DNA of 64,000 bases, taken from assembly GCA_038237865.1 (NCBI GenBank), contig JBBRYG010000005.1, positions 113,384 to 177,383 of the forward strand. The letters run 5' to 3'. The translations under genes and the position numbers were made by a program. The DNA comes from Gaiellales bacterium. Its GTDB lineage: Bacteria; Actinomycetota; Thermoleophilia; Gaiellales; Gaiellaceae. Below are positions 36,101 through 53,852 of the stretch, piece by piece. Under the pieces are notes generated by a model, which was not told the DNA's origin, ran no database searches, and saw nothing but the letters and a program-made list of their open reading frames with translations. How positions within the stretch are numbered: position 1 is the first letter of the stretch; the number at the start of each line of letters is the position of its first letter.

Positions 36101-36375
36101 AGCATCGCCTCCTCGGTCGCGCGGGCGGCCTCGTCGAGGTCCCAGTCGTTCGGGATCGTGGTGACGTCGCGGCCGTCGGCGAGCAGTTGGGCGAGGTACG
36201 CGGCTTCGTGTTCCTCGCCCTTGCGTTTGACGAGATCGGCCTGCGGGTTCTCGTCGGTCGGCCTCGCCAGCTCGTGCCGCGCCACCGCAAGCTCGAGCTG
36301 GGTCAGGTGCTCGCACTCGAGGAACGCGTTCAGGTCCGAGGGCGAGAAGAGGATGGATCCGTTGCGCTCCTGCAC
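33088..36375 (-). CDS. RecB/Cas4-like nuclease fused to SF1 (DNA2/Upf1-like) helicase, Nhi-like architecture
   Basis: 1095 aa. The N-terminal PD-(D/E)xK nuclease is 'VDTKLARHSKPAYVLQLCFY', with Cys cluster 'C..CDFQQRC'. Helicase motifs are Walker A 'IQGPPGAGKTY', 'LFVDEAGQV', 'VVTPYNAQV' and 'TVDKFQGQEAPVV'. Confidence 0.9.
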   Translation of the reverse strand: MQERNGSILFSPSDLNAFLECEHLTQLELAVARHELARPTDENPQADLVKRKGEEHEAAYLAQLLADGRDVTTIPNDWDLDEAARATEEAMLAGADVVYQACFVDGDWRGFADFVERQPGGRYEVVDTKLARHSKPAYVLQLCFYSEQVGRIQGSMPERMHVVLGTHERESLRVADFLAYYHRVRERFVSAVEAGIDVYPLPVSFCDRCDFQQRCESRWRADDHLSLVARMRRDQILRLKREGIATVAQFAQAPDAARPQTMAPRTFETLRDQAAMQVAARANGHAWKVLPSEPARGFELLPPPSDGDLFFDIEGDPFWEPGRGLEYLCGIVDSAGAFRPFWAHDRAQERRAVEGVIDLIREGRAADPALHVYHYASYEVTALKRLTCEYGTREEELDELLRAEVFVDLYKVVSQGLRLSHERYGLKQVETFYFERHADLRAGDDSIVLYEDWLERHDPRILDDIAAYNEEDCVSTLQLRDWLLPLRPSEATQPEPKEPRDPPEGVEETEELRAALLAGLPEDSYEVADADRPRWLLAQLLLYHRREGKPVWWAFFNRIGRTSEELEERDSDAIGGLEQDGPPIGAGQSLVWPFKFPAQQHHLSPGNAVFDPATGGPAGNIDALDEEAGTLMLRRGPKLEDAPLPAALIPGGPFKTTEQQAALRRLARSVLAGAETYLASKSILAREPFTSPLVQDDLEAAKELVTALGGRHLVIQGPPGAGKTYTGARLIVRLMQLGRRVGVTATSHKAIHNLVAEVERAAREESFSFRGLKKGDSYESAFVTTSANQAHFSAPEDDVLLLAGTAWLFAREDMEDVVDTLFVDEAGQVSLADALAVGTCARNVVLLGDPQQLGQVSQGIHPEGAAASVLVHLLGDEDTVPPERGLFLSRTWRMHPEVCRFISETSYEGRLHAVPACELQRIDTPGLVGTGLRWLAVEHEANRASSIEEADRIAAELEQLIGGTFTDCDGLERRIGYEDVLVVTPYNAQVRCLRKRLGRRARIGTVDKFQGQEAPVVFFSMATSSGEDLPRNVEFLFSRNRLNVAISRAQSLAVLFASPKLLEIRCRTIEQMRMVNALCRFVEEAVSVAAHSSST

Positions 36376-36491
36376 TCCGGGAGTATCACGACAGGCACCG
36401 CCGCTTCTTTCACCGCGAGCGACAATGCCATCCGCGCTGTGATGCGAACTGCGAGCCTCTCACCAACCGCTACACGGTTTGTCTGGCAGCA

Positions 36492-36806
36492 ATGCATTGC
36501 GCCGCTAAGGTCTTAAGCGTGCCATGGAAGATCAGCGGTGAGATTGGACCTCACTCGGAGCCTGGCTACGACGGGCGCGGTTGGCTTTGGGAGCTGGAGC
36601 AGGAAGGGCGGGAAGCTCGCCGCGTTTTCGTCCAGATCGCAGGAACGGCGTGGAGCGTATGCGCGCGCGGCGGGGCCGGCCTGGCGAGCGAGACACGTGA
36701 GGCGATCGAGACCGAGGGTCGAAGCGAGGTGGAGCGCGTGCTGGGAATGGACGAACCGCCGCGGATGATTGGCTGCAGCACGTATGGCTGCAACCCGGTG
36801 GCATAA
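36492..36806 (+). CDS. hypothetical protein
   Basis: 104-aa ORF (alternative GTG near 36519) with balanced composition, 'GYDGRGWLWELEQEGREARRVFVQIAGTAW'. It lies 66 nt upstream of the Shedu-like gene on the same strand. Confidence 0.4.
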   Translation: MHCAAKVLSVPWKISGEIGPHSEPGYDGRGWLWELEQEGREARRVFVQIAGTAWSVCARGGAGLASETREAIETEGRSEVERVLGMDEPPRMIGCSTYGCNPVA

Positions 36807-36872
36807 CCTGAGCGACTAACGGATAGCCGGGGATCCCGGTAGTCTCAGGCGCAGCTGACAAAAGGCGGTTCT

Positions 36873-38078
36873 GTGGCCCGAAAAAGATCCCAACCTGCCG
36901 CAGCGCGGCAACTGATCTGTGATCGGTGCGGGATTTTGAATCCCACCGGTGCGCCCGAATGTTCTGCGTGCGGCAGCGAGCGCTTCGCGCCCCAATGGGT
37001 CTTGCACCAGCGACGCATCAACCGCCAGTTCGCCGTTCAGGTAACGGAACCAAACCGAGCGTTCGACAACAGCGGCACTGCACGTCTCACGCTCAGCAAA
37101 TGGTGGCCGGGCGGGCGCGCGACCTTTCACATTCCATCGGCGGACCAGTGGGAACAGATCAAAGGGATCGTCGATCGCGATTTGGCGCAGTACCTTCACT
37201 GGCAGACGCAGCAGGCTGTTCAGCAGACGATCGCCCAAGGTCAAAAGGACGCCCGAAAGGCAACCGCGGGCCTTCAGGCCACGGCGAAAGCCAACCCCAC
37301 GCTCATCACGGAAATCTTGCGCGGGATTAAGTTCGACAAGATCACGGAAGACGACGTCCCGCAGATCGGACGGGCAATTGGCGACATCGCGGGCGTTCTG
37401 ATCGATGCCGACGACAGCATGCGGCGGGCGATCCAGCGAATCGTTAAACAGTTACCTGCGCAAGGTTCCGAAGCCGTTTCGGCGCTTTCTGACTTGATGG
37501 AGAGCGTCACGCTTGCGCAGATCAATGCCGTGACGAATGAAGTGCGGCGCCGCGTCAATTTGCTCAAGGTCTTCAAGGAGCGGGTCAACGACGAGCGTAC
37601 GTACGAGATCACCGGCGATGGTTCGATCCACCGGCTGCTGGAGAGCGCGATGTGGATCGTCAATGAGCGCTACTGGCTCATGCACAGCAACGCGACTTTA
37701 CGAACCGTCGTCGGGAAGGAGCTCGCGAAGAGACACGACGATTTCAAGAAGAAGCGACCCGACTTCGTCTGCGGGTCAGTAGATCGTCGGCTAATCGTCA
37801 TCGAGATCAAGCGACCCTCGCGCGTGCTCCAGGTCGAAGATCTCGACCAGCTGGAGGAATACATTGTCACCGCGCGCGAGTACCTCGACGAGCCTCGAGC
37901 TCCGTTCGAGGCAATTCTCGTTGGAAAAAGGGCAACCGACGACCTCCGGAAGCGGCTCGACGTGCGCGGAAGCCGCGCCTTCCAGGTTAAGACGTACGCA
38001 AGCCTCATCGACGACACCGAGCATCGGTACGAGAGCTATCTCAAGGCGCTCGAAGAGACGGACGAAGACGCCGCCTGA
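36873..38078 (+). CDS. Zn-ribbon + DUF4263-type PD-(D/E)xK nuclease (Shedu SduA-like)
   Basis: 401 aa. The N-terminus has 'CDRCG...CSACG'. The C-terminus has 'RPDFVCGSVDRRLIVIEIKRP', with D then E-x-K 14 residues later. The local sequence is visibly more A/T-rich. Confidence 0.7.
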   Translation: MARKRSQPAAARQLICDRCGILNPTGAPECSACGSERFAPQWVLHQRRINRQFAVQVTEPNRAFDNSGTARLTLSKWWPGGRATFHIPSADQWEQIKGIVDRDLAQYLHWQTQQAVQQTIAQGQKDARKATAGLQATAKANPTLITEILRGIKFDKITEDDVPQIGRAIGDIAGVLIDADDSMRRAIQRIVKQLPAQGSEAVSALSDLMESVTLAQINAVTNEVRRRVNLLKVFKERVNDERTYEITGDGSIHRLLESAMWIVNERYWLMHSNATLRTVVGKELAKRHDDFKKKRPDFVCGSVDRRLIVIEIKRPSRVLQVEDLDQLEEYIVTAREYLDEPRAPFEAILVGKRATDDLRKRLDVRGSRAFQVKTYASLIDDTEHRYESYLKALEETDEDAA

Positions 38079-38097
38079 CGGTCTTCCAGCCATGGGG

Positions 38098-38586
38098 TCA
38101 CCTAGATCCCCCTTCTCCAGTCGGGAGTACCTCGACGAGCTCTGCGACGACGCGCACTTCGTCCGCATCGGCAACCGTGATGTCGATCGGTTCGAACCCG
38201 GCTGCATCGGTATCCGGTAGTAGCCGGACAGCATCGGGTGCGCTCCGTTCGTACAGCTTCACCGTGTAGCTCCCTCCGGTTTCCGGATCATCGATGTGCC
38301 GGCTCTCGACGAGGACTACCCGCCCGGTACGAGAACCCTCCACCGGCGTTCGCCAGACACAGAACGCCCCGTTTTGGATCCGCCGGTTCATCGATTCCCC
38401 CACCACTTGCCCGACGAACAGGCCGGGCGCGGGAGAGACTCGGCCATTCGGCAAGACCCACGCCTCCGCCTCGACCGCCTGACCGTCTCCAAACCCGCCG
38501 GCGGCGGCCGCGAGCGAGTACAGCGGAATCGCGTTCTCGTATGGCCTCACCTCGGCATCGGCTATGCGGGTAAAGGGCAATACGAC
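38098..38586 (-). other. LexA/UmuD-type S24 peptidase domain fused to HsdR
   Basis: '[12 protein letters not shown]' is the cleavage-site region, '[18 protein letters not shown]' holds the Ser, and 'GRVVLVE...YTVKLYE' holds the Lys. The tail '[17 protein letters not shown]' parallels LexA 'VELLPENSEFKPIVV'. Confidence 0.7.
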
Positions 38587-41500
38587 AGCCTCTTCTACCT
38601 CCGCCCACTCGAGGCCGAGCAGCTCGGCCTGCTCGAGCACCGTGATCGTGGCCTGCTCCTGGAGATCGGGCGGATAGCCGTGCTTGCGCAGGATCCGCCG
38701 CACCATCCGGCGGAGGTTCGCACGCACGCTGTCCTTCACCGTCCAGTCGATCGTCGCGTTCCGCTTCACCGTCTCGACGAGCTCGCGGGCCATGAAGAGC
38801 AGCTCCTGATCGCCAAGTAGGTCAACGGCGCTCTGGTTCGCTGCAAGCGCGTCGTAGAACGCGAGCTCGTCGTCGTTGAGCCCGAGCTCCTCGCCGCGCC
38901 GGTCTGCCTCGCGCAGCTCCTTCGCGAGCGCGATCAGCTCCTCGATTACCTGCGCCGCCTCGATCGCCTTCGCCTGGTAGCGCCGCACCGCAGCCGCGAG
39001 CAGCTCCGCGAACGACCGCGCCTGGACGACGTTCTTTCTCGAGCGCACCTTGATCTCGTCGTTCAGCAGCTTCTGCAGGAGCTCGACGGCAAGATTTCGC
39101 TGGGGCAGCTCCCGCACCTCGGCGAGGAACTCGTCCGAGAGCAGCGAGATGTCCGGCTTCTGCAGACCCGCAGCGGAGAAGACGTCTATCACCTCGCCCG
39201 GCGCGATCGCTCCGGCGACGATCTGCCGGATCGCGTGGTCGAGATCCTCCTCCGGCCGCGATTGGCCCGCCTCCGTCTTCACGAGCGCCGCTTTCACCGC
39301 CTGGAAGAACGCGACCTCGTCGCGGATCGCGAGGGCCTCGTCCCGCGGCACCGACAGCGCGAACGCCTTCGAGAGCTCGATCACTGCCCGCACGAACCGC
39401 TCACGCCCGTCCTCCTGCGCGAGCACGTGCTCCTGCGCGCTCGCGAGCAGCGCGAGCAGACCGCCGGGAGTCAAGGCCCGCGAGTAGTCGAAGCCGTGGA
39501 AGAGCGCGCGGCAGATCTCCGCCTTCCCGAGCATCAGCGCGACCGCCTCGCTCTGATCGAGGGCGCCCGCGCCGCGACCGCCGCTTGCCGTGTAGATCGA
39601 CAGCGCTTTCCGGAGATCGTCCGCGATGCCTAGGTAGTCGACGACGAGGCCGCCCGGCTTGTCGCGGAAGACGCGGTTCACGCGCGCGATCGCCTGCATC
39701 AGCCCATGCCCACGCATCGGCTTGTCGACGTACATCGTGTGCAGGCTCGGCGCGTCGAAGCCTGTCAGCCACATGTCGCGCACGAGCACGACCCGGAAGG
39801 GATCGTCGGGATCCTTGAACCGCCGCGCCAGCTCCTCGCGGCCGCGCTTGCTGCGAATGTGCCGCTGCCACTCCGGCGGGTCGGACGCCGAGCCGGTCAT
39901 GACGACGTTCACGTCCCAGTCGGGCCGCAGCGTGACGATCGCCTCGTAGAGGTCGACACAGATCCGGCGGCTCATGCAGACGACCATCGCCTTCCCGTCC
40001 ATCGTCTCGAGGCGGCGCTCGAAGTGCTCGACGAGATCCTCCGCGACGAGCTCCAGCCGCTTCTCGGTGCCGACGACCGCCTCGAGCTGCGCCCACTTCG
40101 ACTTCAGCTTCTCGCGCCGCGCCTCCTCCTCGCCCTCGGTCACCTCCTCGAACGCCTCGTCCAGCTTCGGCGTCTCCTCGGGCTTGAGGTCGAGCTTCGC
40201 CAGCCGGCTCTCGTAGTAGATCGGCACGGTCGCGCCGTCCTCGACCGCCTGCTGGATGTCGTACACGTCGATGTAGTCGCCGAAGACGTTGCGCGTGTCG
40301 CGGTCCTCGAGCTCGACCGGCGTGCCGGTGAAGGCGACGTAAGTCGCGTTCGGCAGCGCGTCGCGCAGGTGCCGCGCGAAGCCGTCGACGAAGTCGTATT
40401 GGCTGCGGTGCGCCTCGTCCGCGATCACGACGACATTGCGCCGGTCGGTCAGCAGCGGGAAGCGGTCGCCCTTCTCCTCCGGGACGAACTTCTGGATCGT
40501 GGTGAAGACCACGCCGCCGGACGCCACGCTGAGGAGCTCGCGCATGTGCGCGCGGTCGCGCGCCTGCGTTGGCGCCTGCCGGAGCAGGTCGGCGCTGTGG
40601 CCGAAGACTCCGTAGAGCTGGTCGTCGAGGTCGTTTCGGTCGGTGAGGATGACAAGGGTGGGATTACCGAGCGCCGGCTCGAGTACGAGCTTGCCGGCGT
40701 AGAAGGTCATCGTCAGGCTCTTGCCGGAGCCCTGCGTGTGCCAGACGACACCGGCGCGCCCGTCGCCGGAGGGGTCGGCGGCGCGTACCGTCGTCTCGAC
40801 TGCCTTCAAGGTCGCATGGAACTGGTGGTAGCCCGCGACCTTCTTGACCACGTTCGCGCCGTCGTCCTCGAAGACGATGAAATGCCGGACGAGCTCGAGC
40901 AGCCGCTCCTTCGCGAAGACGCCGCGGGCAAGCACCTCGAGCAGGTTCGATCCCGGCGGCGCCAACGCCTCGCCGTCGATCGTGCGCCACGGCAGGAACC
41001 ACTCTTTCGAACCGGTCAGCGTCCCGAGCCGCGCATCCACGCCGTCCGAGACGACGAGCAAGGCGTTCGGCGCAAGCAGCGACGGGATCTCGAGCTTGTA
41101 GGTCTCGAGCTGGTTGTAGGCACTCCAGACGTCTGCGTGCTCGTCGGCCGGGTTCTTCAGCTCGACGACGGCGAGCGGGATCCCGTTGACGTAGAGGACG
41201 ACATCGGCGCGGCGGTGCGCCTGGCCTTCCTGGACGGTGAGCTGGTTGAGCGCGAGCCAGTTGTTCGCGGCGAGGTCTTCGAAGTCGAGCAGGCGGACGC
41301 GCTCGCCGCGGACGCCGCCGCCCGCCGCGGGCACCTCGACCTCGATCCCGTCCACGAGCAGCCGGTGCAGACGCCGGTTCTCGAGCACGAGCGCCGGTGA
41401 CTCGCGCTGGAGGAGCTTCCGCTCGGCCGCGTCGAGCGCGCTCCCCGGCGCACCCGGGTTCAACCGTGCGAGCGCGGCACGCAGGCGCCCGCGGAGCAGG

Positions 41501-41646
41501 ACGTCGCCGTAGCTCTCCCGCTCGACCGCCGGCTCGCCGGGCGCGAGATCGGGCCCGTGCATGACCTCCCAGCCGAGCTCGCCGAGCCACTCGAGCAGCG
41601 CGAGCTCGGCGACGTTCTCGTCGTAACGGGGGACGGTGGTCGGCAT
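38098..41646 (-). CDS. hsdR: type I restriction endonuclease subunit R with C-terminal S24 (LexA-like) domain
   Basis: 1182 aa from the ATG at 41646. The nuclease is '[20 protein letters not shown]'. Helicase motifs are '[11 protein letters not shown]', '[10 protein letters not shown]', 'FTGTP' and 'QAIARVNR'. A DUF3387-like region follows, then the S24 module. Confidence 0.93.
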
Positions 41647-41648
41647 CG

Positions 41649-42635
41649 TTAGGCGACTCGGGCCAGGACTGCCTCCACATTCTCGATGAATGTCGGCCAA
41701 TAGTCAGCACCCGTTCCGTCGTCTCGGACGGACACCCCCGCATGTCGTACATCGGCTGCGATGCGATGTATGAGCTGACGGGCCTCACTCGCGCGCTGGT
41801 AGTCGGAGAGCTCATCTAGATCGGGACGTGCAAACCAGCGCCAGATCTCCGCCAACGCGTGGAGCAGTTGCGGCCAGTCGCGGTGTGTGGGGATCGCGTG
41901 GGGATCGAGTTCGAGGAAGGAGGCCCAGCGCGCGCTGTCGACCCCGTATCGAGCCTCGTTGCCGACCCAGAAGCGCTCGACATCGCCGGCGGCGCTCAGC
42001 TCCGCGAGGGCGTCGCTGACGTTCCGTTTCGTCGACGCTGCGGCGGCGGCGATCGCAAGAGCGGTCGCGTTCGACACCCCCGTCGTGAGTAGGAAGCGGA
42101 CGATCTCCGCGCGCGCGCTCACGCCGAAATGCCGCCGCAGCCGGAACGCGAGGTTGATCGGGGCCCGGAGGTCGGGCGGGGTCGACTTTCCGCTCGGCGT
42201 CGTCGCAGGCTTCACGAAGCCGCGGGCGAGGAAGATCGGGTCCTCACGGCCGGGCAGGCCCGGCCGGCGAAAGAGCGGAACGGGCTCGCGGCCCGGCTCC
42301 ACCGTGCCCGGCAGGCGTCTGAGCGCCGACCCGTTCGCCGCGGCCCACTCGACCGCGGCGTCGATGACCGGACGTCCGGGATCGTGGCGCGAGAGGTGCG
42401 ACAGCCGGCGCGAGCTGACGACGTCGCCGTTCGCTCGCAGCCAGTCGAGCACCTCGTCGAAGAGGCGCGGGTCGGCGCGGGCGACCTCGAGCGAGAACAA
42501 GAGCAGCGCCTCCGGGTCCTGCGCCCACGGGTCCCTGCGCGCGGTCGCGATGAAGACACCCATCTGCGACCATTGGTCGCCGGCGAACCGCAACAGCGTG
42601 CCCGTGACGCGCTCTCTAAGCTCCGAGACCCGCAT
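41649..42635 (-). CDS. hypothetical protein with central wHTH-like segment
   Basis: 328 aa from the ATG at 42635. '[48 protein letters not shown]' looks like a winged helix. It ends 2 nt before the hsdR start. Confidence 0.6.
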
Positions 42636-43200
42636 CCTCGACTCCGAGGTAGCGCAGCGCAGGGACCAACATCTCGTTGAATCCCTCGGACGGATCCTGC
42701 GTCCGTGCCCAGGCCGCAGCCGCGAGCAGCTCATCGCGCGTCGGCGCAAGCGCGCGAAGATCGTCCTCGTGGCGGCCGCTTCCCTGGTCGGTGAGCGCGT
42801 AGAGCTTGAAGTGGATCTGGTCGTAGCGGCTCGCGAGGTGGATCGACAGGGACGGCCCGAACTCCCTGCGCTCGAGCCGGTCGACGAAACCGTCGGGGAG
42901 CCCCCACTCGAGCAGGTCGGACGGGCCGGCGTTGAGCCAGCCGTCGCTGACCCCGAAGTCCGCGGCGACGGCGTCCTTGGCCTCGACGAGGGCAGGCGGC
43001 AGCGGCTTGGCGTCGCGCAGCACCCCGCCCTCCATTAAGGCCACGACGTCGACGTCGCGCGTCGGCCGCTCGACAAGTCCGAGAATCGTGAGCGCGGAGC
43101 CACCGATGACGACGAGCTCGACCGGCGTCCGCGCGAGCTCGAGCCGCTGCCCCAAGGCGCGCAGCAACTCGGCGATCGCCTCTGGCGCGAGCGGATACAT
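42616..43200 (-). CDS. minimal nucleotidyltransferase (DUF6036-like)
   Basis: 194 aa. 'LVVIGGSALTILGLVERPTRDVDVVAL' fits GS...DxD, and 'HFKLYALTDQGSGRHEDDLRAL' follows. It overlaps the downstream gene by 20 nt. Confidence 0.72.
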   Translation of the reverse strand: MYPLAPEAIAELLRALGQRLELARTPVELVVIGGSALTILGLVERPTRDVDVVALMEGGVLRDAKPLPPALVEAKDAVAADFGVSDGWLNAGPSDLLEWGLPDGFVDRLERREFGPSLSIHLASRYDQIHFKLYALTDQGSGRHEDDLRALAPTRDELLAAAAWARTQDPSEGFNEMLVPALRYLGVEDAGLGA

Positions 43201-43242
43201 GCGAGAAGTATAACTTCTCGATTCGAGAACTACAGCCTCTTG

Positions 43243-44360
<1,118 letters not shown>

Positions 44361-44364
<4 letters not shown>

Positions 44365-45923
44365 GGACGGATGCGGAGCAGCTCTGAGCGGATCGTGCGC
44401 TCAAGTTCTACGGACTCAGCGAACTGTTCCTCGAGCTGCGCCGCCAACCTCGCGATCTTTTCCTCGAACGGCTCGCCGTCGTCCTCCTCCGCCGCGGCGC
44501 CGACGTAGCGACCCGGCGTCAGCACGTGGTCGTGCCCACGGATCTCCTCGAACGTCGCGCTCTTGCAGAAGCCGCGCTCGTCCGCGTACTCGCCGACGCC
44601 CGGCTCGCCGCGCCAGGCGTGGTAGGCGCCAACGATCCGCGCCAGCTCGTCGTTGGTCAACTCGCGGTGGGTGCGGCTGGCCATCACGCCGAGCTTGCGC
44701 GCGTCGACGAACAGCGTCTCGCCCGCCCGCGCCCGCAGCGACTTCGCGCCTCGCGTCGGCGCGCCCGACTTGTCGCGGGCGAGGAACCAGAGACAAACGG
44801 GGATCGGCGAGCCGTAGAAGAGCTGCCCCGGCAGCGCGACGATGCAGTCGACGAGGTCGGCCTCGACGATCGCCTTCCGGATCTCGCCTTCGCCGGACTG
44901 TTGGGAACTCATCGAGATGTTCGCGAGCACGAAGCCCGCGATCCCCAGCGGCGCGAGGTGGTGGATCATGTGCTGCACCCAGGCGAAGTTCGCGTTTCCC
45001 TGCGGCGGCACGCCGAACTGCCAGCGCACGTCGTCGGCGTCGCGTGCCCAGTCGCTCATGTTGAAGGGCGGGTTCGCGAGCACGAAGTCCGCCTTCAGGT
45101 CGGGGTGCAGGTCGCGGCGGAACGTATCGGCATGCTGCGGGCCGAGGTTCGCCTCGATCCCGCGCAGGGCGAGGTTCATCTTCGCGAGCTTCCAGGTGGT
45201 CGGGTTCGACTCCTGGCCGAAGATCGAGATGTCGTCGAGCCGGCCGCCGTGCGCGGCGATGAACTCCTCCGACTGCACGAACATGCCGCTCGAGCCACAG
45301 CAGGGGTCGTAGACGCGGCCCTGGTAGGGCTCGATCATCTCGACGAGCAGCTTCACGACCGAGCGGGGCGTGTAGAACTCGCCGCCGCGCTTGCCCTCCT
45401 TCGAGGCGAACTGGCCGAGGAAGTACTCGTAGACGCGGCCGAGCACGTCTTTCGCGCCGTCGCCTGCGCCGAAGCCGATGTTCCCGATCAGGTCGATCAA
45501 CTCGCCGAGCCGCTGCTTGTCGAGCGCCGGCCGCGCATACTCCTTGGGGAGCACGCCGGCGAGCGAACGGTTCTCGCGCTCGACCGCGTCCATCGCGCCG
45601 TCGACGAGCGTCCCGATCTCGGGCTGCTTCGCCTTGTCCTGCAGGAAGCCCCAGCGAGCCTCGGCGGGAACCCAGAAAACACCCTTGGCGAGGTACTCGT
45701 CGGGATCCTCGGGATCCGCACCCTGTGCAACCTGGGCGGCGATCTGCGCGTGCCGCGCCTCGAATGCGTCGGAGACGTACTTGAGGAAGATCAGGCCGAG
45801 GACGACGTGCTTGTACTCGGCTGCGTCCATGTGCCCGCGCAGCTTGTCCGCCGCCGCCCAGAGCGTCGCCTCGAAACCGAGCGTCGCGCCATTTGCCGAT
45901 TGCTGCTTGCGCGGTCTACCCAT
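44361..45923 (-). CDS. hsdM: type I restriction-modification N6-adenine DNA methyltransferase subunit
   Basis: 520 aa from the ATG at 45923. The N-terminus is '[32 protein letters not shown]'. SAM motif '[12 protein letters not shown]'-type is '[12 protein letters not shown]', and the catalytic motif is 'LANPPFN'. Confidence 0.95.
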
Positions 45924-47748
45924 CCGCGGTCGGCACAGTAGCGGGCGCCGCTTCCCACCCCGATGCTCGGCGCCAGTCCTCGAGTGAGACGTCGGGGCCT
46001 CGCCAAATCTGAACCACTCGTGCCGCCAGCTCGGCGGAGCGCTCATCGATCGCCTGCTCGGTCCAGCCGGCCGCGTAGCTCCCGACGAGACGTGAATTCA
46101 GGAGAAGGACGCTGTGCGCATTGAGGGCGTCCTTCTTTGATGTCCAGGCAGCGTTCGACATCGCCGGATTGAGCTTCGAGGTTACGAGGGTCAAGTTGCC
46201 GAGTTGGTGGACTCGCGACTCCCGCTGCTGAATCGCCTCATCCGTCGACTCGGACAAAGACCAGTGCTGCTGCCACTTCTGAGGGAGGACGTGCTCGATC
46301 GAGAGATCAGCAGGAATCTGGACAGCCTCAGCCTTCTCGGTACGGAGGTCATGTTCCAGTGCTTTCAACAGCATGACCAGCCGCTTCCGCACGAGGGTTC
46401 GGTAGAGAGGCGCATCGTGGAGGACAGACAGAAGCTCTGCGTCGTCAGGCCATCGAGCTGAGTCCGCATCGCTGGACGTGAGGAAGCCATGCACCACCTC
46501 ATCGGCGGCGTCGGTGCTCCCGGTCAGGAGCTTCACGAGATCGACGAAGAGCCGGTTGTACCCCTGCGCCGTCAGCCGACAGATCATCCGCCGTACGAGC
46601 CAACTCTCGAGCATCGAAAGCGCAGCGTTTCGGCGCGCCTCGGGAAGATCGTCCTGGAAGAGGATGAGCGCAATCGGATACGCGGTCGTTGTATCGAGAG
46701 CTTCGAGTCGCTCGAAGAAACGCTGCGGGATCGTTCCGAGCGGTTGCTGGAAGAAACGCTCGTATCGGTCGCGATCGGCAGTGAATTCCCCGATCGTCTG
46801 CGTCACCGACTGGGTCTCTTCCTGGAGCAGCCTCTTGAACGTCCCGTAAAGATGCTGCGCCGGCACCTCCTCGCCCAACTTCATTGTCAGCCAGTGCATC
46901 AAGAAGAGCTCGGCGCGCGGACGGCGGAGGCGACCCTGCACAATTTCCTCTCGCCAATAGTCCCGGTCGAAGGTCGCCCACCGCTCCGCGTAGAGGCTGT
47001 CGAGATTCGCCGAAGCCTCGGTGCGCTCGGCATGCTGAAACACCAGGTTCTTGACGAGGTCGATCGCGAGCAGTGGGGTGCCGCGGGCATTCAGACTTTC
47101 GAAGATCACCTGCGCGTCGTCCTCGGAATCGAGGTCGATCACCACGAGCTTGAACAGGTTTCGGGCTACAGCAGTGAGCCCGTCGAATGCTCGTTCGACA
47201 TCGTCCTGCTCGACCGCCCACTGGCGAATGACGCCAAGGAAGAAGGCGTATGCCTCATGGATCCGGTTCCCCTCATCCTCAGCGGCGGCTTCGCCTGCCA
47301 TGACGTCGACGAAGGCATGGCGATTCGCGTTCGTAGGCCAGACCTTGAACCGCGCATCGCGAGTCTTCGCCAGGTCGGGATTGTTTCGAGTGAGGCTCTC
47401 GAGGAGCCGAGCCTGAACCTCGCACCCCGTCTCTTGCGCCACGCGTGAGGCAGCAGCGATGAACAACTGGAGCGTCGTAAGCCGCTGCTGCCCGTCGATG
47501 ACAAGTCGGACGTCGATGTCCCCGAGCTGAGTGGGCATCTGTTCGAGTACCACCGCTCCCAGGAAGTGCGGAGAAGGCTTGCCAGACGTGGCAGGGTCAC
47601 TCGACCGGTCTAGCACCCAACAAACGTCGTTCCACAACGGCTCCCAGTGCTCGGCTTTTTTCCACACGTATGGGCGCTGATAGAGGGGAACGACGTAGCG
47701 CACGTCCTTGCCGAAGATCGTTGCGAGGTCGTTCGTGTCCGCCTTCAT
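45916..47748 (-). CDS. GmrSD-family (DUF262 + DUF1524) modification-dependent type IV restriction enzyme
   Basis: 610 aa. DUF262 shows 'YQRPYVW' and '[13 protein letters not shown]'. The C-terminal His-Me finger shows 'IEHVLPQ...LGNLTLV...N'. It overlaps hsdM by 8 nt and the ImmA gene by 4 nt. Confidence 0.9.
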
Positions 47749-48268
47749 GCTGGGGCTTCCGCCACGAGCCCGAGGTTGTAGACGGGCCAGGCATACGCCT
47801 CATCGCTGACGCCGACGCGATTGTTGCCGGATGCCGCTCGGACCTCGGGTTCAGGCATCAGCAGCTTTGCTGCGAACACGTTCGCCTCGCGCTCCAGCGC
47901 ACGATCGGCAGCCGAGCTCACGTCCTTCGGCCGGCAGAACACCGGCGCTCGTTGCCCTTCCATGCACTGGCAGATCCAGTGGTCAAGCTCGTGGGCGATC
48001 GTGAAGCGCCGGCGGGGCTCCGGCTCGGTCGAGTTCACGTAGATCTCACGCCGGCCGGGAGGAGCATGCCCGACACGTCCAGCTCCGCCTCCTCGATGCT
48101 CAGGCCGAGGAGATCCTCCGCGATCCGCTCTACGGGCACGGGCAACTCGGGGTCGTCGAACAGCTCGTGGTAACGCCGCCGCAAGACCCCTGCCCTCGGA
48201 TCGGTGACCGGTCCGGCCACGTCCGCATTGTCATTGGTTAGCGGGAAAAAGGGAAGGCACGCGATCAA
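47745..48268 (-). pseudogene. ImmA/IrrE-family (M78) metallopeptidase gene, split by a 1-nt frameshift
   Basis: ORF 48035..48268 ends '...PVERIAEDLLGLSIEEAELDVSGMLLPAG'. The next frame continues '(REIY)VNSTEPEPRRRFTIAHELDHW', which contains HExxH. The break is near 48035-48045. Confidence 0.65.
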
Positions 48269-48359
48269 CTTGGAAGTGGCGCTCGTCGCCGCGGAGTCTT
48301 ACATTCACGGACGCGGCTCGATAGTGGGTCAGTTTGGAAGGGAGTCCGAACGCGAGTTG

Positions 48360-48887
48360 TCAGGCTGCCTGTCGAGCGAGCTTCTTCGTGAAGCGGTCCG
48401 ACGCGTCCCTGAGAACTTGGTCGAGCAGCCTGTTGAGCAACCATAAAAGGGACCAGGTCCTGATGAACGCGAGCGCGAGAATGCTGGCCGCGATTGCTTC
48501 AAGCCACTTCTTTGGGTCTTTCGCTGCATCCGCCAAGACCATCGCGGTCATAACGATAGTCGCGAAGGCGAATGCCCAGATCGCGCCCATGAAGATGTTC
48601 CGCGTGTACGCAAAACCGGGCGTACCACGAAGGAAGTCCATGCCTCTGCCGGATCCGAGCCCCGTGAACACGGTGATCGCGGCGAGGGCGAATCCGAGAA
48701 GGACGCCACTCGTGCCTGCTAGTGACATGTAGAAATTCGAACGCGTGCCGGGGTCTATGGCGGCGAGAAGATTCGGTCGGCCGGGCGCGAAATACTCAGC
48801 GGCTCCGTAGCCAAGGCCGAAAACGGCCGCCAAGACCCAGTGGTAGCCAATGAAAGCGTCCTTGAAGCGCGGCATAGACACATTCAT
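48360..48887 (-). CDS. four-TM membrane protein
   Basis: 175 aa with four hydrophobic spans and a basic C-terminal tail. Its ATG overlaps the upstream gene stop as ATGA at 48884-48887. Confidence 0.65.
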   Translation of the reverse strand: MNVSMPRFKDAFIGYHWVLAAVFGLGYGAAEYFAPGRPNLLAAIDPGTRSNFYMSLAGTSGVLLGFALAAITVFTGLGSGRGMDFLRGTPGFAYTRNIFMGAIWAFAFATIVMTAMVLADAAKDPKKWLEAIAASILALAFIRTWSLLWLLNRLLDQVLRDASDRFTKKLARQAA

Positions 48888-49797
48888 CGCTCTTCAACCT
48901 TGAGTGTGCCGCCTTGGGCAAGGTCATCGGCCATACGCGCATGCACGGCTTGAATCGTGGAGTACGCGGCCTCCGTGTCAAGAGTTCGGTGGCGCGGGCT
49001 TTCTCGCCGAATGTCCTCGACGATGACTACACGATCGTGGAGAAGGTCGAGTTCACCGAGGTCGTCGTCGGACGTAACCCCGTATACCTGCGCGGTCTCG
49101 ACGAAGCTCGTCGGCTCCGCGCCTGAGTCGCGGAGGCCACGAAAGAATCGCTTGACGCGCTCGGTGAAGTCCGCGTCTCCGCCTCGGAGGCCCAGGTGAG
49201 GTCGACGTACTTGCCTGCCCGGAAAACGTCCGTCACTTCGAAGCCCTCGCTGAGTGCGACGCCGCGTCCCTGAAGTTCGGCCTGGCCGTGTGGTGTCACC
49301 TTTACTCGCACGCGGCGGATCTCCCGCATGGCGAGGATCGCGCTGATCACGTCGCCTCGCACAAACGGGCGGATATGGACGTCCTGGTCGCAACGCTCGT
49401 TCAGAAACGTGCCGAACGTAGTGATCCGCGGACCGTAATGGTTGTACTCGGAGCCAATCACGTTGTCATCAAACAGGAGGATATGGATCGACTCGGCCAG
49501 CCCTCGTTCCTCGGCGAGCTCGAGATCCTCGAAGGTCCCCGCCTCCTCGGTCTCGGGGAGATTGCGCCGACGGATCCGGTAAAACCGAATGCGCTGCGGG
49601 CGTTCGGGCCTATCGACAATGGCACACAAAAACTGCTCGTCCCCCTCGTCGATGTAGAAATCGGACGTGCCGTCAAGCCCGCCAATGCGGTCTACGATGT
49701 CCTGTCGGTCGAGCGAGAAGGTAGGATCGTCGTCGTTTACGGCCTTGTGGAAATAGATCTTTCTCTCGGCGAAGTTCGGGTCTCGCTGTCGGGGCAT
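48884..49797 (-). pseudogene. uncharacterised ~304-aa cytoplasmic protein gene with one frameshift
   Basis: The ATG at 49797 is preceded by AGGAGGAAGAAGG. The body lies in ORF 49027..49866 up to '...GKYVDLTWASE'. It then continues in the frame of ORF 48884..49393 as 'GGDADFTERVKRFFRGL...TLKVEER'. The shift is near 49175-49190. Confidence 0.6.
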
Positions 49798-50230
49798 CCT
49801 TCTTCCTCCTCGTCGATCCGGTCTTTCCCCTGCGGCGACTCTCACAGCCGTCGTGACAGTTGGCAAGCGTGGAGGTGGTGAAATGAAGCGCTACCTTTGT
49901 TGAGATGCTTGACCGCTCACGTAAGCGCCCAAGGACGTGAACGAGCGCTAGCAAGACGCGAGATCCGCGACGTGACGCCCGAGATTTCGGCCTGACCCAC
50001 TACCCGCGGCTCTTTTTGACTGAGTCCTTACCGGGTGATGTCCACCTCGCTGCTCCTCGCCCGCAACCGGATGGATCACCGAGATGCGACTCCAGCCATT
50101 TCTGCAGGTCTGTTCTCTATCGGGCGAGCCTTTCGAGGATCGCCTGGTTCTCGTTCATGAACCGGTCGAGCCTCTCCTGGAACGCGCGATTGGAGCGCTT
50201 CGCCTGGACGTGGACGGTGGCCTGCGGCCC

Positions 50231-50357
50231 CCGTCTAGTTAGGACCCGGATCGGCGAGAAGCGGGATCCCAGCCCTCGGGGAGGGACGAATCCTCTAATT
50301 AGACGGTGGCCGCAGGTCACACCGTCCTAGGACCCGGGATCGGAGAAGGTTCGTCTA
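50231..50357. repeat. cluster of imperfect inverted and direct repeats in a non-coding stretch at the island edge
   Basis: The inverted repeat is CCGTCTAGTTAGGAC (50231-45) against GTCCTCTAATTAGACGG-type (50290-50305). The direct repeat TAGGACCCGGATCGG(CG)AGAAG (about 50240-61) recurs as TAGGACCCGGGATCGGAGAAGG (about 50328-49). Confidence 0.35.
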
Positions 50358-50574
50358 GGGCGGCGGATCTCTCCGCGTTCCTCTCGGCAGCGGAGAGCGC
50401 GTCGACGAGCCGACGCCCATCCGCGGGTCTCGGCGAAGACATCCGCCTGCGCGGGCCCGGGCTCGTCGGCTCCGGCCTCGAGCTCGACGGCGAGCTCGTG
50501 CAGCTCTGCGCCTTCTCGACCCACGGCTCCCACGCCGACACGCGCATCGCGCGGCCGAGCCGCCGTCGTTGATC

Positions 50575-50616
50575 GTCACTTGACATGTGACTAAATAGTC
50601 ACGTATCGTTGGACAT
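50575..50616 (+). promoter_or_regulatory. putative leaderless promoter with overlapping ArsR-type operator
   Basis: TTGACA (50580-85), an 18-nt spacer, TATCGT (50604-09), then 7 nt to the ATG at 50617. The palindrome GTGACT-AAAT-AGTCAC (50587-50602) lies in the spacer, with a third GTCACT half-site at 50575-80. Confidence 0.45.
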
Positions 50617-50937
50617 ATGGCCGACGACGATCTCGCCTTTCGCGCACTCGCAGACCCGACGCGGCGCTTCCTGCTCGACCGGCTCTTCGAGCGTGACGGC
50701 CGCTCGCTCACCGAGCTCGAGTCCGGGCTGGAGATGACGCGCTTCGGGGTGATGAAGCACCTGCGCGTGCTCGAAGACGCGAACCTCGTCGTCACCCGGC
50801 GGCAGGGGCGGGAGAAGCTCCACTTCCTGAACCCCGTCCCGATCCGGTTGATCCACGACCGCTGGATCGACAAGTACACGGAGCGCCAGGTCTCGGCGCT
50901 CGCCCACCTCAAGACCCAACTGGAGGATGCAGGATGA
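50617..50937 (+). CDS. ArsR/SmtB-family transcriptional regulator
   Basis: 106 aa. 'FRALADPTRRFLLDRL...SLTELESGLEMTRFGVMKHLRVLEDANLV'. Confidence 0.9.
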   Translation: MADDDLAFRALADPTRRFLLDRLFERDGRSLTELESGLEMTRFGVMKHLRVLEDANLVVTRRQGREKLHFLNPVPIRLIHDRWIDKYTERQVSALAHLKTQLEDAG

Positions 50938-51212
50938 GCACAATGGTCGAGGGCGAGGTGCTGGAGGTCGACCCGCCGCGCAAGCTCGTCCAGACGTGGA
51001 AGTTCCTCTACGACCCCGAGCTGCGTAGGTGACCTGGGTGAACCCCTCCGCGGTACGAGATCGAGGCGCAGGAGGGTGGAATCTCGAAGCTGACCGCGAT
51101 CCACGAGCTCGAGGGCGCGCCGAAGACCGCCGAGCACGTCGCGAGCGGCTGGAGCTACATCCTCAGCGGCCTGAAGACGCTGCTCGAGACCGGCAAGCCG
51201 CTCGCCGGCTAG
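50934..51212 (+). pseudogene. remnant of SRPBCC/AHSA1-like gene (N-terminally truncated, frameshifted)
   Basis: The ATG overlaps the arsR stop as ATGA. It reads 'MSTMVEGEVLEVDPPRKLVQTWKF' and then hits a stop. Another frame continues 'YEIEAQEGGISKLTAIHELEGAPKTAEHVASGWSYILSGLKTLLETGKPL', a typical SRPBCC C-terminus. Confidence 0.6.
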
Positions 51213-51275
51213 CTACCACCCGCACTGGAAGCCCCGACGGCGCGGCCCGCAAGCCGCGCCGTCGCCGTCCCCGGG

Positions 51276-51905
51276 CTACTTGCCCTTGCCCTTCGGCTTT
51301 CTCGGAACGATGTCGCCGTGGGTTCGGATCTTTCCGCCCTCAAGCCTGTCCGTCCACGTGCCACGACCGCCGTCGGTCGCGTGGTAGACGAACTCGTAGC
51401 GGGTGTACTTGAAGCTCTTGAAGCCTTCTCCGCTCGTGAAGTAGGCGCTCAGCCAGTCGTAGGTGCCGGAGCACTCGCCCTTGCGATCGCTGGAGAGGCA
51501 GCCGAAGTTCTTCGTCCCGAGGTCGCCGCGGGTGGGCTGCCCGGAAGGGGAGAAGCGCGCGGCGAACGTGTTCGTCGACGATCCCTTGACCGTGCCGCGG
51601 ATGCCGGCCGGAATGGTGGTCGTCCCGCCCGGGCTCGCGCCGGCGACCGTCGTAAAAGTGCCGTTGTAGGTCGAGGTCGAGCAGTAGCGGTTGGTGCCTT
51701 TCCGCCAGACCCGGACGGTGCGCACGTAGTTGTCGAAGGCCCAGTTGTTTCCCCTGGTACCCGTGTCGATGTCGTTCTGGACGCGGTAGCGGACATCGAG
51801 CACGCGTGTGCCGGCTCCGCAGCCGCCGTTCTTGGGGCCGCTCGCAGCGGTCGCGGGGCTCGCCAGGATCAAGCCTGCGAGGATCGCTGTGAATGCCGCT
51901 TTCAC
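51276..51905 (-). CDS. secreted hypothetical protein
   Basis: 209 aa from the GTG at 51905. Signal peptide 'KAAFTAILAGLILASPATAASG', several Cys residues, and a Lys-rich tail. Confidence 0.55.
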   Translation of the reverse strand: MKAAFTAILAGLILASPATAASGPKNGGCGAGTRVLDVRYRVQNDIDTGTRGNNWAFDNYVRTVRVWRKGTNRYCSTSTYNGTFTTVAGASPGGTTTIPAGIRGTVKGSSTNTFAARFSPSGQPTRGDLGTKNFGCLSSDRKGECSGTYDWLSAYFTSGEGFKSFKYTRYEFVYHATDGGRGTWTDRLEGGKIRTHGDIVPRKPKGKGK

Positions 51906-51927
51906 ACCAAAACAGACGATTTTTAAG

Positions 51928-52716
51928 TCATAAACTTGCGGTCTGCCGCCAGGAGGCGGTGATGCCGATCGGTGCGCCCGCCGCGACGCCGGGACGCTCG
52001 TAGAGCCGGACGCGAGCGGCGCGGACGAGCTCGCGGAACTCCTCGTCCGTCTCGGCCTCCCGGACCTCAGCCGGTCCAAGGCGGACAGACTCCTCTCCGG
52101 CACGGAGCTCGACCCAGGCCTCCCCGCCCTCCGAGGCGAGCCTGCGGAGGGCACCGCTCGCCGCCACCTGGTCGAGCTCCGAGACGACGCGCTCGAGCTC
52201 GTCCACGAGCCGGCTTTCGCTGACGACCCGAAAGGCGGCCACGAGCGAGCGGTAGTACCAGAGCTGGTCGGCCTCCGGGTTGAACCGGCCCCAGAGCTCC
52301 TCGCCGAGCTCGCGGTAGTCGAAGAGCACCGAGCGGGCGTTGTGCACCTTGTCGGCCAGGGAGACGCGGACGATCGACGGGTGTGCTTCGGCCAGGCGGG
52401 CGATGTAGCGCTCCTTGCGAGGGCGCCAAGCGGGCTTCGGCTGGATGTCCGCGTCCGAGCAGCCGACGACGATTTCCGCGACGCGCTCGCCGTAGCGCTC
52501 GACAAGCTCCTCCGCACGGATTCCGCAGTCCTCGATCGCGTCGTGCAGGAGTCCCGCGATCGCCTCGTCCTCGTCGCCGCCGTCCTCCAGCACGAGCGCG
52601 GCGACGCCCAGGAGGTGCGCGACGTAGGGGATGCCCGTGTCGCCCTTGCGCTCCTGTGAGGCATGGGTGCGGGTCGCGTAGACCAGCGCATCCTCGAAAC
52701 GGTTCCCGAGCGGCAC
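51928..52716 (-). CDS. HD-domain hydrolase (SpoT/Mesh1-like small alarmone hydrolase type)
   Basis: 262 aa from the GTG at 52716. 'PYVAHLLGVAALVLEDGGDEDEAIAGLLHDAIED' is the H...HD signature of the (p)ppGpp-hydrolase fold. Confidence 0.78.
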   Translation of the reverse strand: MPLGNRFEDALVYATRTHASQERKGDTGIPYVAHLLGVAALVLEDGGDEDEAIAGLLHDAIEDCGIRAEELVERYGERVAEIVVGCSDADIQPKPAWRPRKERYIARLAEAHPSIVRVSLADKVHNARSVLFDYRELGEELWGRFNPEADQLWYYRSLVAAFRVVSESRLVDELERVVSELDQVAASGALRRLASEGGEAWVELRAGEESVRLGPAEVREAETDEEFRELVRAARVRLYERPGVAAGAPIGITASWRQTASL

Positions 52717-52763
52717 GCGCGCATCATCCCGTGTCCGACGCGACGGCGACACTTGCAGGGCGA

Positions 52764-53852
52764 ATGGCCGATCCGCGAGACGAGATCGCCGAAGCCTGGG
52801 CGGCGCTCGCCGAACGGGAACGGCGCCTGAACGAGACGGTGACGCGGCGCTCCGCCGAGCTCGACGCGCGGACGACCCGCTTCGACCAGCTCTCGGTAGA
52901 TCTGGACGAGCGCGCACGGCTCGTGACCGAGTCCGAGGCCGGCCTACTCGAGCAGCGGCGCCGGCTCGCAGAGGCCGAGGAGGCGCAGCGCGTCCGAGAG
53001 CTGGCCGCGCGTGACCTCCAGGCGGAGGAGGAGCGCGTGGGCGAGTTGAATCGACGCGCTGACCAGCGCGAGCGCGAGTTGCGAGCCGCGGCGATCGAGC
53101 TGGACGAGCGCGGCGAGTGGATCGCCTCGGCCGAGGCTGCGCTCGATACCCGCGAGGGCCAGCTCGGAGAGCTCGAGCGGCTCAAGGAAGATCTCGAGCG
53201 TCGTCTGGTGGACGTCGGAGACCGCGAACGCCTAGTGGATGTCGTGACGGCACAGCTCGACCAGCGCGCGGCGGCCCTCGAGGCGCTCTCCGCCGACGCC
53301 GTGCAGCGGCAGCGGCGGGCGGACGAGCAGAACCAGAAGCTCGAGCCCCTGCTCGCCGGTGCCTCCATCCGGGAGCGCACGGTCGCGGAGAAGGAACGGC
53401 AGCTCGAGGAACGTGAGAGGAGGCAGCTCGTCTCCGAGGAGCATCTGAGCCGCCGGGCCGCCAAGATCGCGCTGACAGAGACGCGGCTTTCGCACCGGGC
53501 GCGGGACATCCGCGAGGTGGAGGCGCGCGTCGAAGCGATCGAGCAGCGCGAGCAGGAGCTGGACGGACGCCGAGAGGAGCTCGAGCGGACGGCTCGGGGA
53601 CTCGACGAACGTGGCGGCTGGCTCGCGGCGGCGGTGACCCAGCTGGACGAGCGTGAGCGCGTCCTGCGTGACCGGGAGCACGAGGTGCGGCGCATCCAGG
53701 GGCTGGAGACCGCATTGGCTGAGCGAGCGGAACGGCTCGACGATCGTGAGCGCCGGCTGATCGCCGCCGAGGAGGAGCTCACGGGGCGCCGCCGCCAGAT
53801 CCGTGACGCGGAGCTCCGCCTGGGAGACGCCGAGCCTGAGCCTTCGACCTGA
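52764..53852 (+). CDS. repetitive coiled-coil protein
   Basis: 362 aa from the ATG at 52764. It is E/R/L/A-rich with heptad-like character and a recurring 'LDER..(W)L' unit: DLDERARLV, ELDERGEWIA, GLDERGGWLA, QLDERERVL, RLDDRERRL. Confidence 0.7.
   Translation: MADPRDEIAEAWAALAERERRLNETVTRRSAELDARTTRFDQLSVDLDERARLVTESEAGLLEQRRRLAEAEEAQRVRELAARDLQAEEERVGELNRRADQRERELRAAAIELDERGEWIASAEAALDTREGQLGELERLKEDLERRLVDVGDRERLVDVVTAQLDQRAAALEALSADAVQRQRRADEQNQKLEPLLAGASIRERTVAEKERQLEERERRQLVSEEHLSRRAAKIALTETRLSHRARDIREVEARVEAIEQREQELDGRREELERTARGLDERGGWLAAAVTQLDERERVLRDREHEVRRIQGLETALAERAERLDDRERRLIAAEEELTGRRRQIRDAELRLGDAEPEPST

Follow-up and report, generated by a model that had tools for sequence, protein, structure and literature searches.

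A candidate RexAB-type two-gene cassette at the head of a defence array in a Gaiellales bacterium

What is the pair of overlapping genes that heads an array of restriction-modification (R-M) and other defence genes in a Gaiellales bacterium? The pair occupies positions 48360–49797, on the minus strand, of a 64,000-nucleotide (nt) stretch of contig JBBRYG010000005.1 (assembly GCA_038237865.1, positions 113,384 to 177,383), which is called the window below. The first gene, A, encodes a soluble protein and is interrupted by a frameshift; the second, B, encodes a small protein with four transmembrane (TM) helices. The original prediction, made from the DNA letters, took the two for a sensor/effector pair of the abortive-infection kind. 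This idea holds up as the best reading in a more definite form: the pair is, with a probability of roughly 0.7, a cassette for abortive infection or exclusion of the RexAB type. No phage-exclusion system has been known for longer than RexAB. To our knowledge, the Rex-like systems described so far are few, and all come from prophages in Proteobacteria or Actinobacteria. The observed and computed basis of the assignment consists of the homology of A to RexA, the topology of B and its probable homology to RexB, the strict adjacency of A and B, and the association of the pair with defence islands and mobile elements. DNA binding by A, contact between A and B, membrane depolarisation, and the trigger would be expected by analogy with lambda RexAB and the systems of actinophages.

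Layout of the two genes

The features of the pair, in window coordinates, are as follows:

49798..49810, minus strand: Shine-Dalgarno region AGGAGGAAGAAGG, read directly from the sequence, with AGGAGG at 49810–49805; it abuts the ATG of gene A at 49797–49795.
49181..49797, minus strand: 5' part of gene A (RexA-like), which keeps the original frame from codon 1 to ~205, defined by translation, by profile-profile comparison to RexA and by the fold match to 8TWQ.
49180..49181, minus strand: frameshift site, one base short relative to intact homologues in DNA and protein alignments; the window has GAGGC-GGAGAC where homologous locus L029 has GAGCCAGGCGAC.
49027..49029, minus strand: premature TAG in the unrepaired frame, giving a product of 256 amino acids (aa; P0006), out of frame over its last ~51 residues.
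48884..49180, minus strand: gene A, 3' part, in the -1 frame only, stop-free and conserved (DADFTERVKRFFRGLRD ... GGTLKVEER), ending at the TGA at 48886–48884.
48360..48887, minus strand: gene B (RexB-like), 175 aa, intact, with four TM helices, a basic C-terminal helix and a conserved loop, GLGSGRGMDFLRGTPGFAYTR, between TM2 and TM3.

Gene A opens where the original prediction had placed it, with a strong ribosome-binding site directly before the ATG at 49797, and all three peptides quoted there lie in the frame opened by this codon. Homologues of gene A begin with MPP(V/I)PQRDPN at the same position. Once the missing base is restored, the product is 304 aa long, as had been estimated, and aligns end to end with intact homologues of ~305 aa; in the profile alignment to RexA, the 5' part spans most of a split globular domain and the start of a dimerisation-like domain. 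The TGA of gene A (48886–48884) overlaps the ATG of gene B (48887–48885) in an ATGA, and the 175-aa four-TM protein announced for 48887–48360 is borne out by four hydrophobic segments and a four-helix structural model. Both genes are real, not chance open reading frames (ORFs), because their homologues reach E-values of 7e-151 for A and 5e-82 for B. A promoter and terminator scan around the pair gave minus-strand signals not above chance.

Relation of the two proteins to RexA and RexB

The original prediction found no motif that it could place in protein A. Both the profile and the fold nevertheless have a recognisable counterpart: since profile-profile and fold comparisons both lead to RexA, A is, as judged from sequence profiles and from the fold of its AlphaFold model, a remote member of the RexA superfamily. 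Single-sequence searches of the repaired protein against Pfam, NCBIfam, PADLOC, PHROGs and PDB sequences returned sub-threshold matches only, whose value lies in their shared pointing to RexA. The weak matches all fall on residues 105–170 of A against residues 94–162 of RexA; the PHROG family 'RexA-like exclusion protein' is one of those on this segment. The top PDB sequence match is 8twq, hhalign of A against lambda RexA gives an E-value of 2e-4, and 2 of 26 homologues of A match Pfam RexA. When the A family is represented by a profile of 83 diverse sequences and RexA by an alignment of five members (lambda RexA and IMG/VR relatives at 44–76% identity), hhalign scores the relationship at 93.7% (E 1.9e-7) over 229 columns, residues 11–272 against 4–243 of 281, which is nearly end to end; reversed-sequence controls score 0.1%. 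Individually, 30 of the 83 family members match the PADLOC RexA model, the best at 9e-7.

The predicted structure leads to the same protein. The AlphaFold model of A (pLDDT 84, pTM 0.74) was compared by Foldseek with 350,542 PDB chains, and the best match is lambda RexA, 8TWQ (E 3.5e-7, probability 1.0, 301 columns). It is followed by CENP-L, Iml3 and Escherichia coli RdgC (2owl, E 5.7e-3); CENP-L/Iml3 and RdgC are the structural relatives given for RexA in its structure paper (PMC11077077). A library of viral structures gives as best matches uncharacterised siphovirus proteins (E 3.6e-12), headed by a 314-aa protein of 'Siphoviridae sp. ctylc9', together with phage RdgC proteins. The presence of RdgC among the fold matches, bacterial and phage, and the fold that RexA and RdgC share (PMC11077077) speak for another reading, in which A would be a housekeeping RdgC-like recombination modulator beside which a membrane-protein gene lies by chance. 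Yet RexA scores four orders of magnitude above RdgC in Foldseek, the distribution of A is patchy (12 loci in a pattern-based scan of 185,579 species), its GC content is below that of the host flanks, and A is always paired with a four-TM gene. The pair lies in islands and mobile elements, and is disrupted both here and in the locus of its closest relative (L023), with no sign of essentiality. We regard a housekeeping function of this type as extremely unlikely.

DUF6731 (PF20505) is the only Pfam family that recurrently matches relatives of A: at permissive E-values, 16 of 26 close relatives and 21 of 83 diverse ones, the best at 1e-8. Its members resemble A in length (~295 aa), but most A-family members have no match to it and the window protein lies under its cutoff; from these matches, the A family looks like a sister group to DUF6731 that does not meet the curated threshold. 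As a separate observation, 9 of the 83 family members weakly match PADLOC model PDLC04768 (PDC-M67A; best E 1.6e-3), which suggests, at the level of sequence, that this candidate multi-gene system in PADLOC-DB may be a relative of the same superfamily. No mention of DUF6731 or PDC-M67 was found in the literature searched.

Protein B has the architecture of RexB. Its hydrophobic segments at residues 11–29, 56–74, 100–118 and 132–150 parallel those of RexB at 8–26, 48–66, 84–102 and 116–134, and its AlphaFold model (pLDDT 87) consists of four long helices. A profile of the close B family gives no signal against lambda RexB in hhalign (0.2%), and Pfam RexB is matched by none of the 20 close B members; PADLOC RexB is matched by six of 20 B proteins, the best at 1e-4, and no other PADLOC model recurs. 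With divergent B proteins from other phyla added, the match to lambda RexB rises to as much as 60.7%, and the diverse B profile scores 83.7% (E 8e-6, 105 columns) against the 20-member RexB family alignment (PF15968), in register across TM2, the central loop, TM3 and TM4. Reversed-sequence controls, which score 0.3–0.5%, were used here; block-shuffle controls are uninformative, as intact blocks retain the matching TM2-loop segment.

The fold and the conservation of B point in the same direction. The best match of the B model in BFVD is a 165-aa protein of mycobacteriophage Sbash, taken as gp31 by its length (E about 0.1), and the second is a 172-aa protein of 'Siphoviridae sp. ctylc9', from the same contig as the best viral match of A. 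Sbash gp31 is the experimentally validated RexB-like component of the gp30/gp31 defence; its cytoplasmic TM2–TM3 loop carries invariant residues, and defence is lost with either substitution, R70A or D73A (PMC6426596). In B, conservation is highest in the TM2–TM3 loop (GLGSGRGMDFLRGTPGFAYTR). B proteins from all phyla align, with G65 and F66 in TM2 invariant and the core of TM2, loop and TM3 conserved, while hhalign of B against Sbash gp31 finds nothing. These lines are each weak, yet they are independent of one another and of the evidence for A, and they are concordant; B is probably homologous to RexB.

The comparison with known systems can be drawn at several distances. First: lambda RexA and RexB (PF15969/PF15968; 8TWQ) are encoded by adjacent co-oriented genes in the order sensor, then membrane protein, as are A and B. 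RexA, like A, is a cytoplasmic protein of ~280–300 aa with the RexA/RdgC two-domain fold; RexB, like B, has ~145–175 aa, four TM helices and a conserved basic TM2–TM3 loop. The pairs differ in that sequence identity is about 15% and the window proteins stay under the Pfam and PADLOC family thresholds. In addition, rexA and rexB are separated by 15 nt whereas the window genes overlap, and the lambda pair lies beside the cI/cro immunity region whereas the window pair lies in a chromosomal defence island with R-M genes. Unlike lambda RexAB, A and B belong to a high-GC host, and their family extends to Chloroflexota, Bacteroidota and Archaea. Second: the actinobacteriophage Rex-like systems (Sbash gp30/gp31, CarolAnn gp44/gp43, Butters gp30/gp31, Toast gp42) combine a soluble and a four-TM protein and exclude phages in experiments, and their RexA-like proteins are DNA-binding dimers (PMC6426596, PMC11077077). 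They share the soluble/four-TM design with the window pair, and the critical loop of gp31 corresponds to the most conserved part of B; their RexA-like proteins are prophage-encoded and 337–372 aa long, against ~305 aa for A, and the Sbash proteins have no detectable sequence-profile similarity to A or B. Third: the 'RexAB-type' prophage defence PP_5643/PP_5644 of Pseudomonas putida pairs a protein with HHpred and structural similarity to RexA with a four-TM partner that has little or no detectable RexB similarity, and the 2026 paper describing it places Butters gp30/gp31 fifth among the Rex-like phage defences described to date (PMC12894663). It was thus recognised by the same type of evidence as the pair studied here, namely a RexA-like soluble protein and a four-TM partner; unlike our pair, it is prophage-borne and experimentally validated, and we take it to be a different sequence family.

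Because Rex-like pairs are known, and were recognised by this type of evidence in P. putida (PMC12894663), the window pair is a new remote member of the Rex-like two-gene systems, not a new kind of system. Of the proposal that it was a candidate undescribed defence pair, the defence-type two-gene module stands, and the undescribed kind does not, A being RexA-like and B RexB-like. The comparator offered at the time, Kiwa, gives way to lambda RexAB, which has the same gene order as the window pair. Kiwa also joins a small polytopic membrane protein to a soluble partner and occurs in defence islands, but KwaA/KwaB have the order opposite to A–B, and KwaB is a DUF4868 protein. It was rejected: the PADLOC KwaA and KwaB models match the window proteins nowhere, KwaB matches 1 of the 83 A-family members at E 0.005, and Kiwa is absent from the top fold matches of A and B.

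Spread of the family and its neighbourhoods

The pair is far from isolated. Searches with repaired A found 28 proteins, most of them 300–320 aa long with 98–100% query coverage and intact across the frameshift site, and searches with B found 22 relatives on contigs whose lengths coincide with those of the A matches. With E ≤ 1e-3 as the limit, an exhaustive hidden Markov model search with the A alignment gathered 1,544 clusters (50% identity), and 349 remain at E ≤ 1e-30; almost all have a length of ~300–315 aa. The pattern-based scan, which took one genome per species, returned its 12 loci from uncultured Actinomycetes, Solirubrobacteraceae, Dehalococcoidia/SAR202, one Archaeoglobaceae archaeon and one Lutibacter; this count is a lower bound, as the scan depends on two peptide patterns. 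B, a protein of 160–190 aa with four TM helices, comes next after A in 20 of 20 compared loci, mostly overlapping it or within a few bases. Intact homologues, for which the original prediction had proposed a search, do occur in other genomes, and degradation is not uniform among them. When the neighbours in these 20 loci were compared all against all, only the A and B families proved common across loci, shadow ORFs aside.

The family also reaches viruses. Five IMG/VR viral contigs carry gene A, each time followed by B. A tblastn search with A gave no matches among plasmids, and among phage genomes it matched only an archaeal pleolipovirus. This provirus, Geoglobus ahangari pleomorphic virus 1, carries the pair as gp18–gp19 (L008, 2989–4453): gp18 matches the A profile at 99.1% in hhalign (E 7e-19), gp19 is a 179-aa four-TM protein whose gene overlaps gp18, and a RelE/ParE toxin gene lies nearby. 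By sequence, gp18–gp19 would be a Rex-like cassette in an archaeal virus.

In the window, the pair is the first unit of a co-directional minus-strand array and thus heads its R-M, GmrSD and AbiEii-like genes, as was first proposed. The array continues, all on the minus strand, with an M78/ImmA-like gene, GmrSD (45916–47748), HsdM, HsdS, a DUF6036/AbiEii-like nucleotidyltransferase and HsdR (38098–41700); an ArsR-like gene adjoins the pair on the side away from the R-M and GmrSD genes. The pair is A/T-richer than its surroundings, as the original prediction had noted, with a GC content of 0.59–0.62 across 48250–50250 against 0.66–0.72 in the flanks, and the low-GC block is longer than the pair, running from ~46000 to 50250 and taking in the next two genes. 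There is no tRNA gene in the 64-kb window, there are no convincing flanking direct repeats around the island, and there is no integrase and no phage gene among the nearby annotated genes (33088–52917). Prophage carriage next to an immunity repressor is accordingly not seen in the window; some homologues lie on integrative elements or viral contigs. Among the described Rex-like systems, carriage next to an immunity repressor is not universal.

Three further observations concern the island itself. Two imperfect direct repeats ~90 nt apart lie at 50213–50338, where the GC content changes upstream of gene A; their letters, given for the minus strand, are CCGGGTCCTAGGACGG...GGCCACCGTC and CCGGGTCCTAACTAGACGG...GGCCACCGTC. 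They were seen by eye, are absent from the 20 repeat families shown by the repeat search, and might be an island boundary mark or a small regulatory element. The 1,200-aa HsdR has an extra C-terminal segment (residues 1065–1188) with a sub-threshold match to Peptidase_S24, a LexA/UmuD-like family (E 1e-4, 22.5 bits against a cutoff of 23.3); if genuine, such a fusion would be out of the ordinary in a type I restriction subunit. The island's far end (33088–36375, minus strand) encodes a 1,095-aa protein with PD-(D/E)XK nuclease, RNase_H_2 and superfamily 1 helicase (AAA_11/AAA_12/AAA_30) domains, which may be another defence gene.

The homologous loci (L numbers) keep similar company. In an Archaeoglobaceae metagenome-assembled genome (L021, WAPX01000049, 5820–12507), the order is HsdR-HsdM-A-B-HsdS, with the pair inside a type I operon of the chromosome, between hsdM and hsdS; in L022, an HsdM fragment lies directly upstream of A. 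A type IIG enzyme is found nearby in L017, and an Eco57I-like methylase of 1,053 aa is adjacent in L011. L004–L006 have an MmeI-type enzyme with PLD/SNF2 helicase, HNH and NERD genes, L013–L016 an SNF2 helicase with a DUF1156 methylase, and L003 OLD-TOPRIM/UvrD (Gabija-like) and AAA_21 genes. Signs of mobility are a tyrosine integrase with HTH_17 genes in L029, an integrative element, and a transposase in L018; L023 and L002 are small-gene elements rich in helix-turn-helix (HTH) genes, of which L023 is integrative. Across loci, these neighbourhoods fit the pattern expected of a mobile defence cassette. The novelty is modest and lies in a very large family that curated thresholds miss, that extends to archaea and archaeal viruses, and that is in some cases embedded in R-M operons.

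The same neighbours bear on a more specialised reading, in which the pair would be an abortive-infection module that guards R-M, analogous to PrrC/EcoprrI: a Rex-like sensor would keep watch on the neighbouring restriction enzyme, or on the DNA products of that enzyme, and fire only when a phage disables restriction. The gene order of L021 recalls the prrC/EcoprrI arrangement, and the HsdM fragment in L022, the position of the window pair ahead of a type I R-M and GmrSD array, and the large methyltransferase-containing R-M-like genes that directly adjoin the pair in L004, L011, L013 and L017 are in line with it. Many loci (L002, L023, L028, L029, L019, L020 and the viral contigs), however, have no R-M gene within 6–10 kb, and only A and B are conserved from locus to locus. 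Where R-M genes do adjoin the pair, their types vary (type I, type IIG, MmeI-like, DUF1156), which is a better fit to the general clustering of genes in defence islands. A dedicated guard of restriction is, in our judgement, very unlikely.

Proposed mechanism, state of the cassette and wider meaning

For a RexAB-type cassette, a mechanism can be drawn from homology and from analogy with the systems described in PMC11077077, PMC6426596 and PMC12894663. A would dimerise and clamp DNA non-specifically, by analogy with lambda RexA and its actinophage homologues, and would sense a DNA or DNA–protein intermediate that is specific to infection. B is predicted to be a four-helix protein of the inner membrane with both termini inside (N-in/C-in), and its conserved cytoplasmic TM2–TM3 loop would be the docking site for A. 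Activation of B would dissipate the membrane potential and let ATP fall, and the phage infection would be aborted. Coupled translation through the ATGA would fix the A:B ratio. This ratio matters for Rex.

A number of points weigh against the RexAB assignment. The window proteins reach no curated threshold: neither has a Pfam RexA or RexB match, and PADLOC RexA matches A at an E-value of only 0.017. DUF6731 itself matches the window protein with 19.1 bits (E 1e-3) against a cutoff of 27 bits, and over residues 69–170 only. The global TM-score between the model of A and 8TWQ is low, at 0.37–0.40; since the RexA crystal holds the closed form and AlphaFold predicts the open form (PMC11077077), a different domain orientation is a plausible cause and may account for the low score. 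hhalign detects no sequence similarity between A and Sbash gp30 (372 aa). The link of B to RexB is only moderate (84%); spurious profile matches are a common hazard with membrane proteins, and in Foldseek B has E-values of about 0.1. Unlike in lambda, no cI/cro-type gene lies beside the pair in the window. No member of the A/B family has experimental support. Lastly, mechanisms differ among Rex-like systems: phage Butters has a cytosolic effector that is held in check by the membrane protein (PMC12894663), and lambda RexA has a role in the lysis-lysogeny switch that does not depend on RexB (PMC11077077).

The heterogeneity of these systems gives substance to an alternative in which the pair is Rex-like with reversed logic or with a role outside defence. 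A would be a toxic or regulatory effector that B sequesters at the membrane, or the pair would serve the mobile element that carries it; in detail, A could be a DNA clamp that blocks replication or transcription, or one that tunes the lysis-lysogeny or excision switch of the element. Butters gp30, the RexA-like effector restrained by gp31 (cited in PMC12894663), is a precedent for the first variant, and lambda RexA, which biases a bistable switch independently of RexB (PMC11077077), for the second. The homologous loci L029, L023 and L002 lie on integrative or prophage-like elements, by HTH regulators and integrases, and others lie on viral contigs; moreover, disrupting mutations have independently struck A, not B, in the window and in L023. 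The alternative is, on the other side, at odds with the R-M and defence neighbours, rather than immunity-region genes, of the window pair and of at least seven other independent loci, and with the position of the L021 pair inside a chromosomal type I R-M operon. An active role of B is indicated by how strictly this protein and its cytoplasmic loop are conserved. We consider this alternative doubtful and keep the RexAB-type cassette as the preferred reading.

The frameshift decides what the cassette can do in this genome. The original prediction had placed it near 49180, and the DNA alignment with the intact homologue L029 puts a single 1-nt gap exactly between positions 49181 and 49180; gene A is 914 nt long, or 2 mod 3, one short of a multiple of three. 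Where the break lies, homologues have 'TWASE-PGD-ADFTERVK'; of 25 that were aligned, none is interrupted at this position, and the majority are of full length. Programmed frameshifting in gene A was considered and rejected, as each of the 25 has one continuous ORF through this position. By alignment, the deletion truncates A at about residue 205, within the region that corresponds to the RexA dimerisation domain, and it stops translation 140 nt ahead of B, which breaks the translational coupling of the two genes. Because A is truncated in this dimerisation-like domain and the translation of B is uncoupled, the cassette is most likely non-functional in this genome, barring an assembly error behind the deletion. 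The 3' part of gene A is still stop-free and conserved, and the deletion is therefore either recent or an assembly error.

Two observations stand beside this one. First: the M78/ImmA-IrrE-like peptidase gene directly downstream of the pair (47745–48268, minus strand) is also split, into two ORFs that break near 48050. An apparent 1-nt deletion leaves '...SGMLLPAG' in one frame and 'REIYVNSTEPEPRRRFTIAHELDHW' in the next, and the concatenated protein matches Peptidase_M78 (E 8e-12). The presence of two frameshifts in 1.2 kb points to decay of this region or to an error in its assembly. Second: the closest relative of A (82% identity; L023–L027, Logan assemblies ERR2112553–ERR2112583) is interrupted by an in-frame stop near codon 41, while its B is intact. 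The L023 allele, at about 9070–9991, reads 'AIVARI*ELGDTPDFY' and recurs on 14 contigs that come from several sequencing runs. Here the RexA-like gene has been disrupted a second time, independently, and the membrane gene has been spared.

Generally poor assembly quality is disfavoured because the long neighbouring ORFs, of 610 aa, 1,095 aa and twice 1,200 aa, are uninterrupted, and real decay of gene A seems more likely than an error. A bolder proposal takes such knock-outs of A as the mark of an autoimmune cost. The DUF6731-related A and its four-TM partner would then form a very large cross-domain branch of RexAB, in Actinomycetota, Chloroflexota, Bacteroidota, Archaeoglobi and their viruses, which defence annotation has missed and which is partly wired to R-M as a PrrC-like guard, as L021 suggests. 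Taken as a whole, this proposal strikes us as unlikely.

If the pair is indeed a RexAB-type cassette, it would stand for an unannotated and very large family with the two-component Rex design, partly overlapping DUF6731. The reach of the Rex design would then include chromosomal defence islands, the phyla Chloroflexota and Bacteroidota, and archaea together with their viruses. Such a family would supply many diverse sequences for working out how a RexA-like DNA clamp and a RexB-like membrane protein communicate, and it would give grounds for new models in defence-annotation tools. For this genome, it would mean a recognisable Rex-like module that is probably dead.

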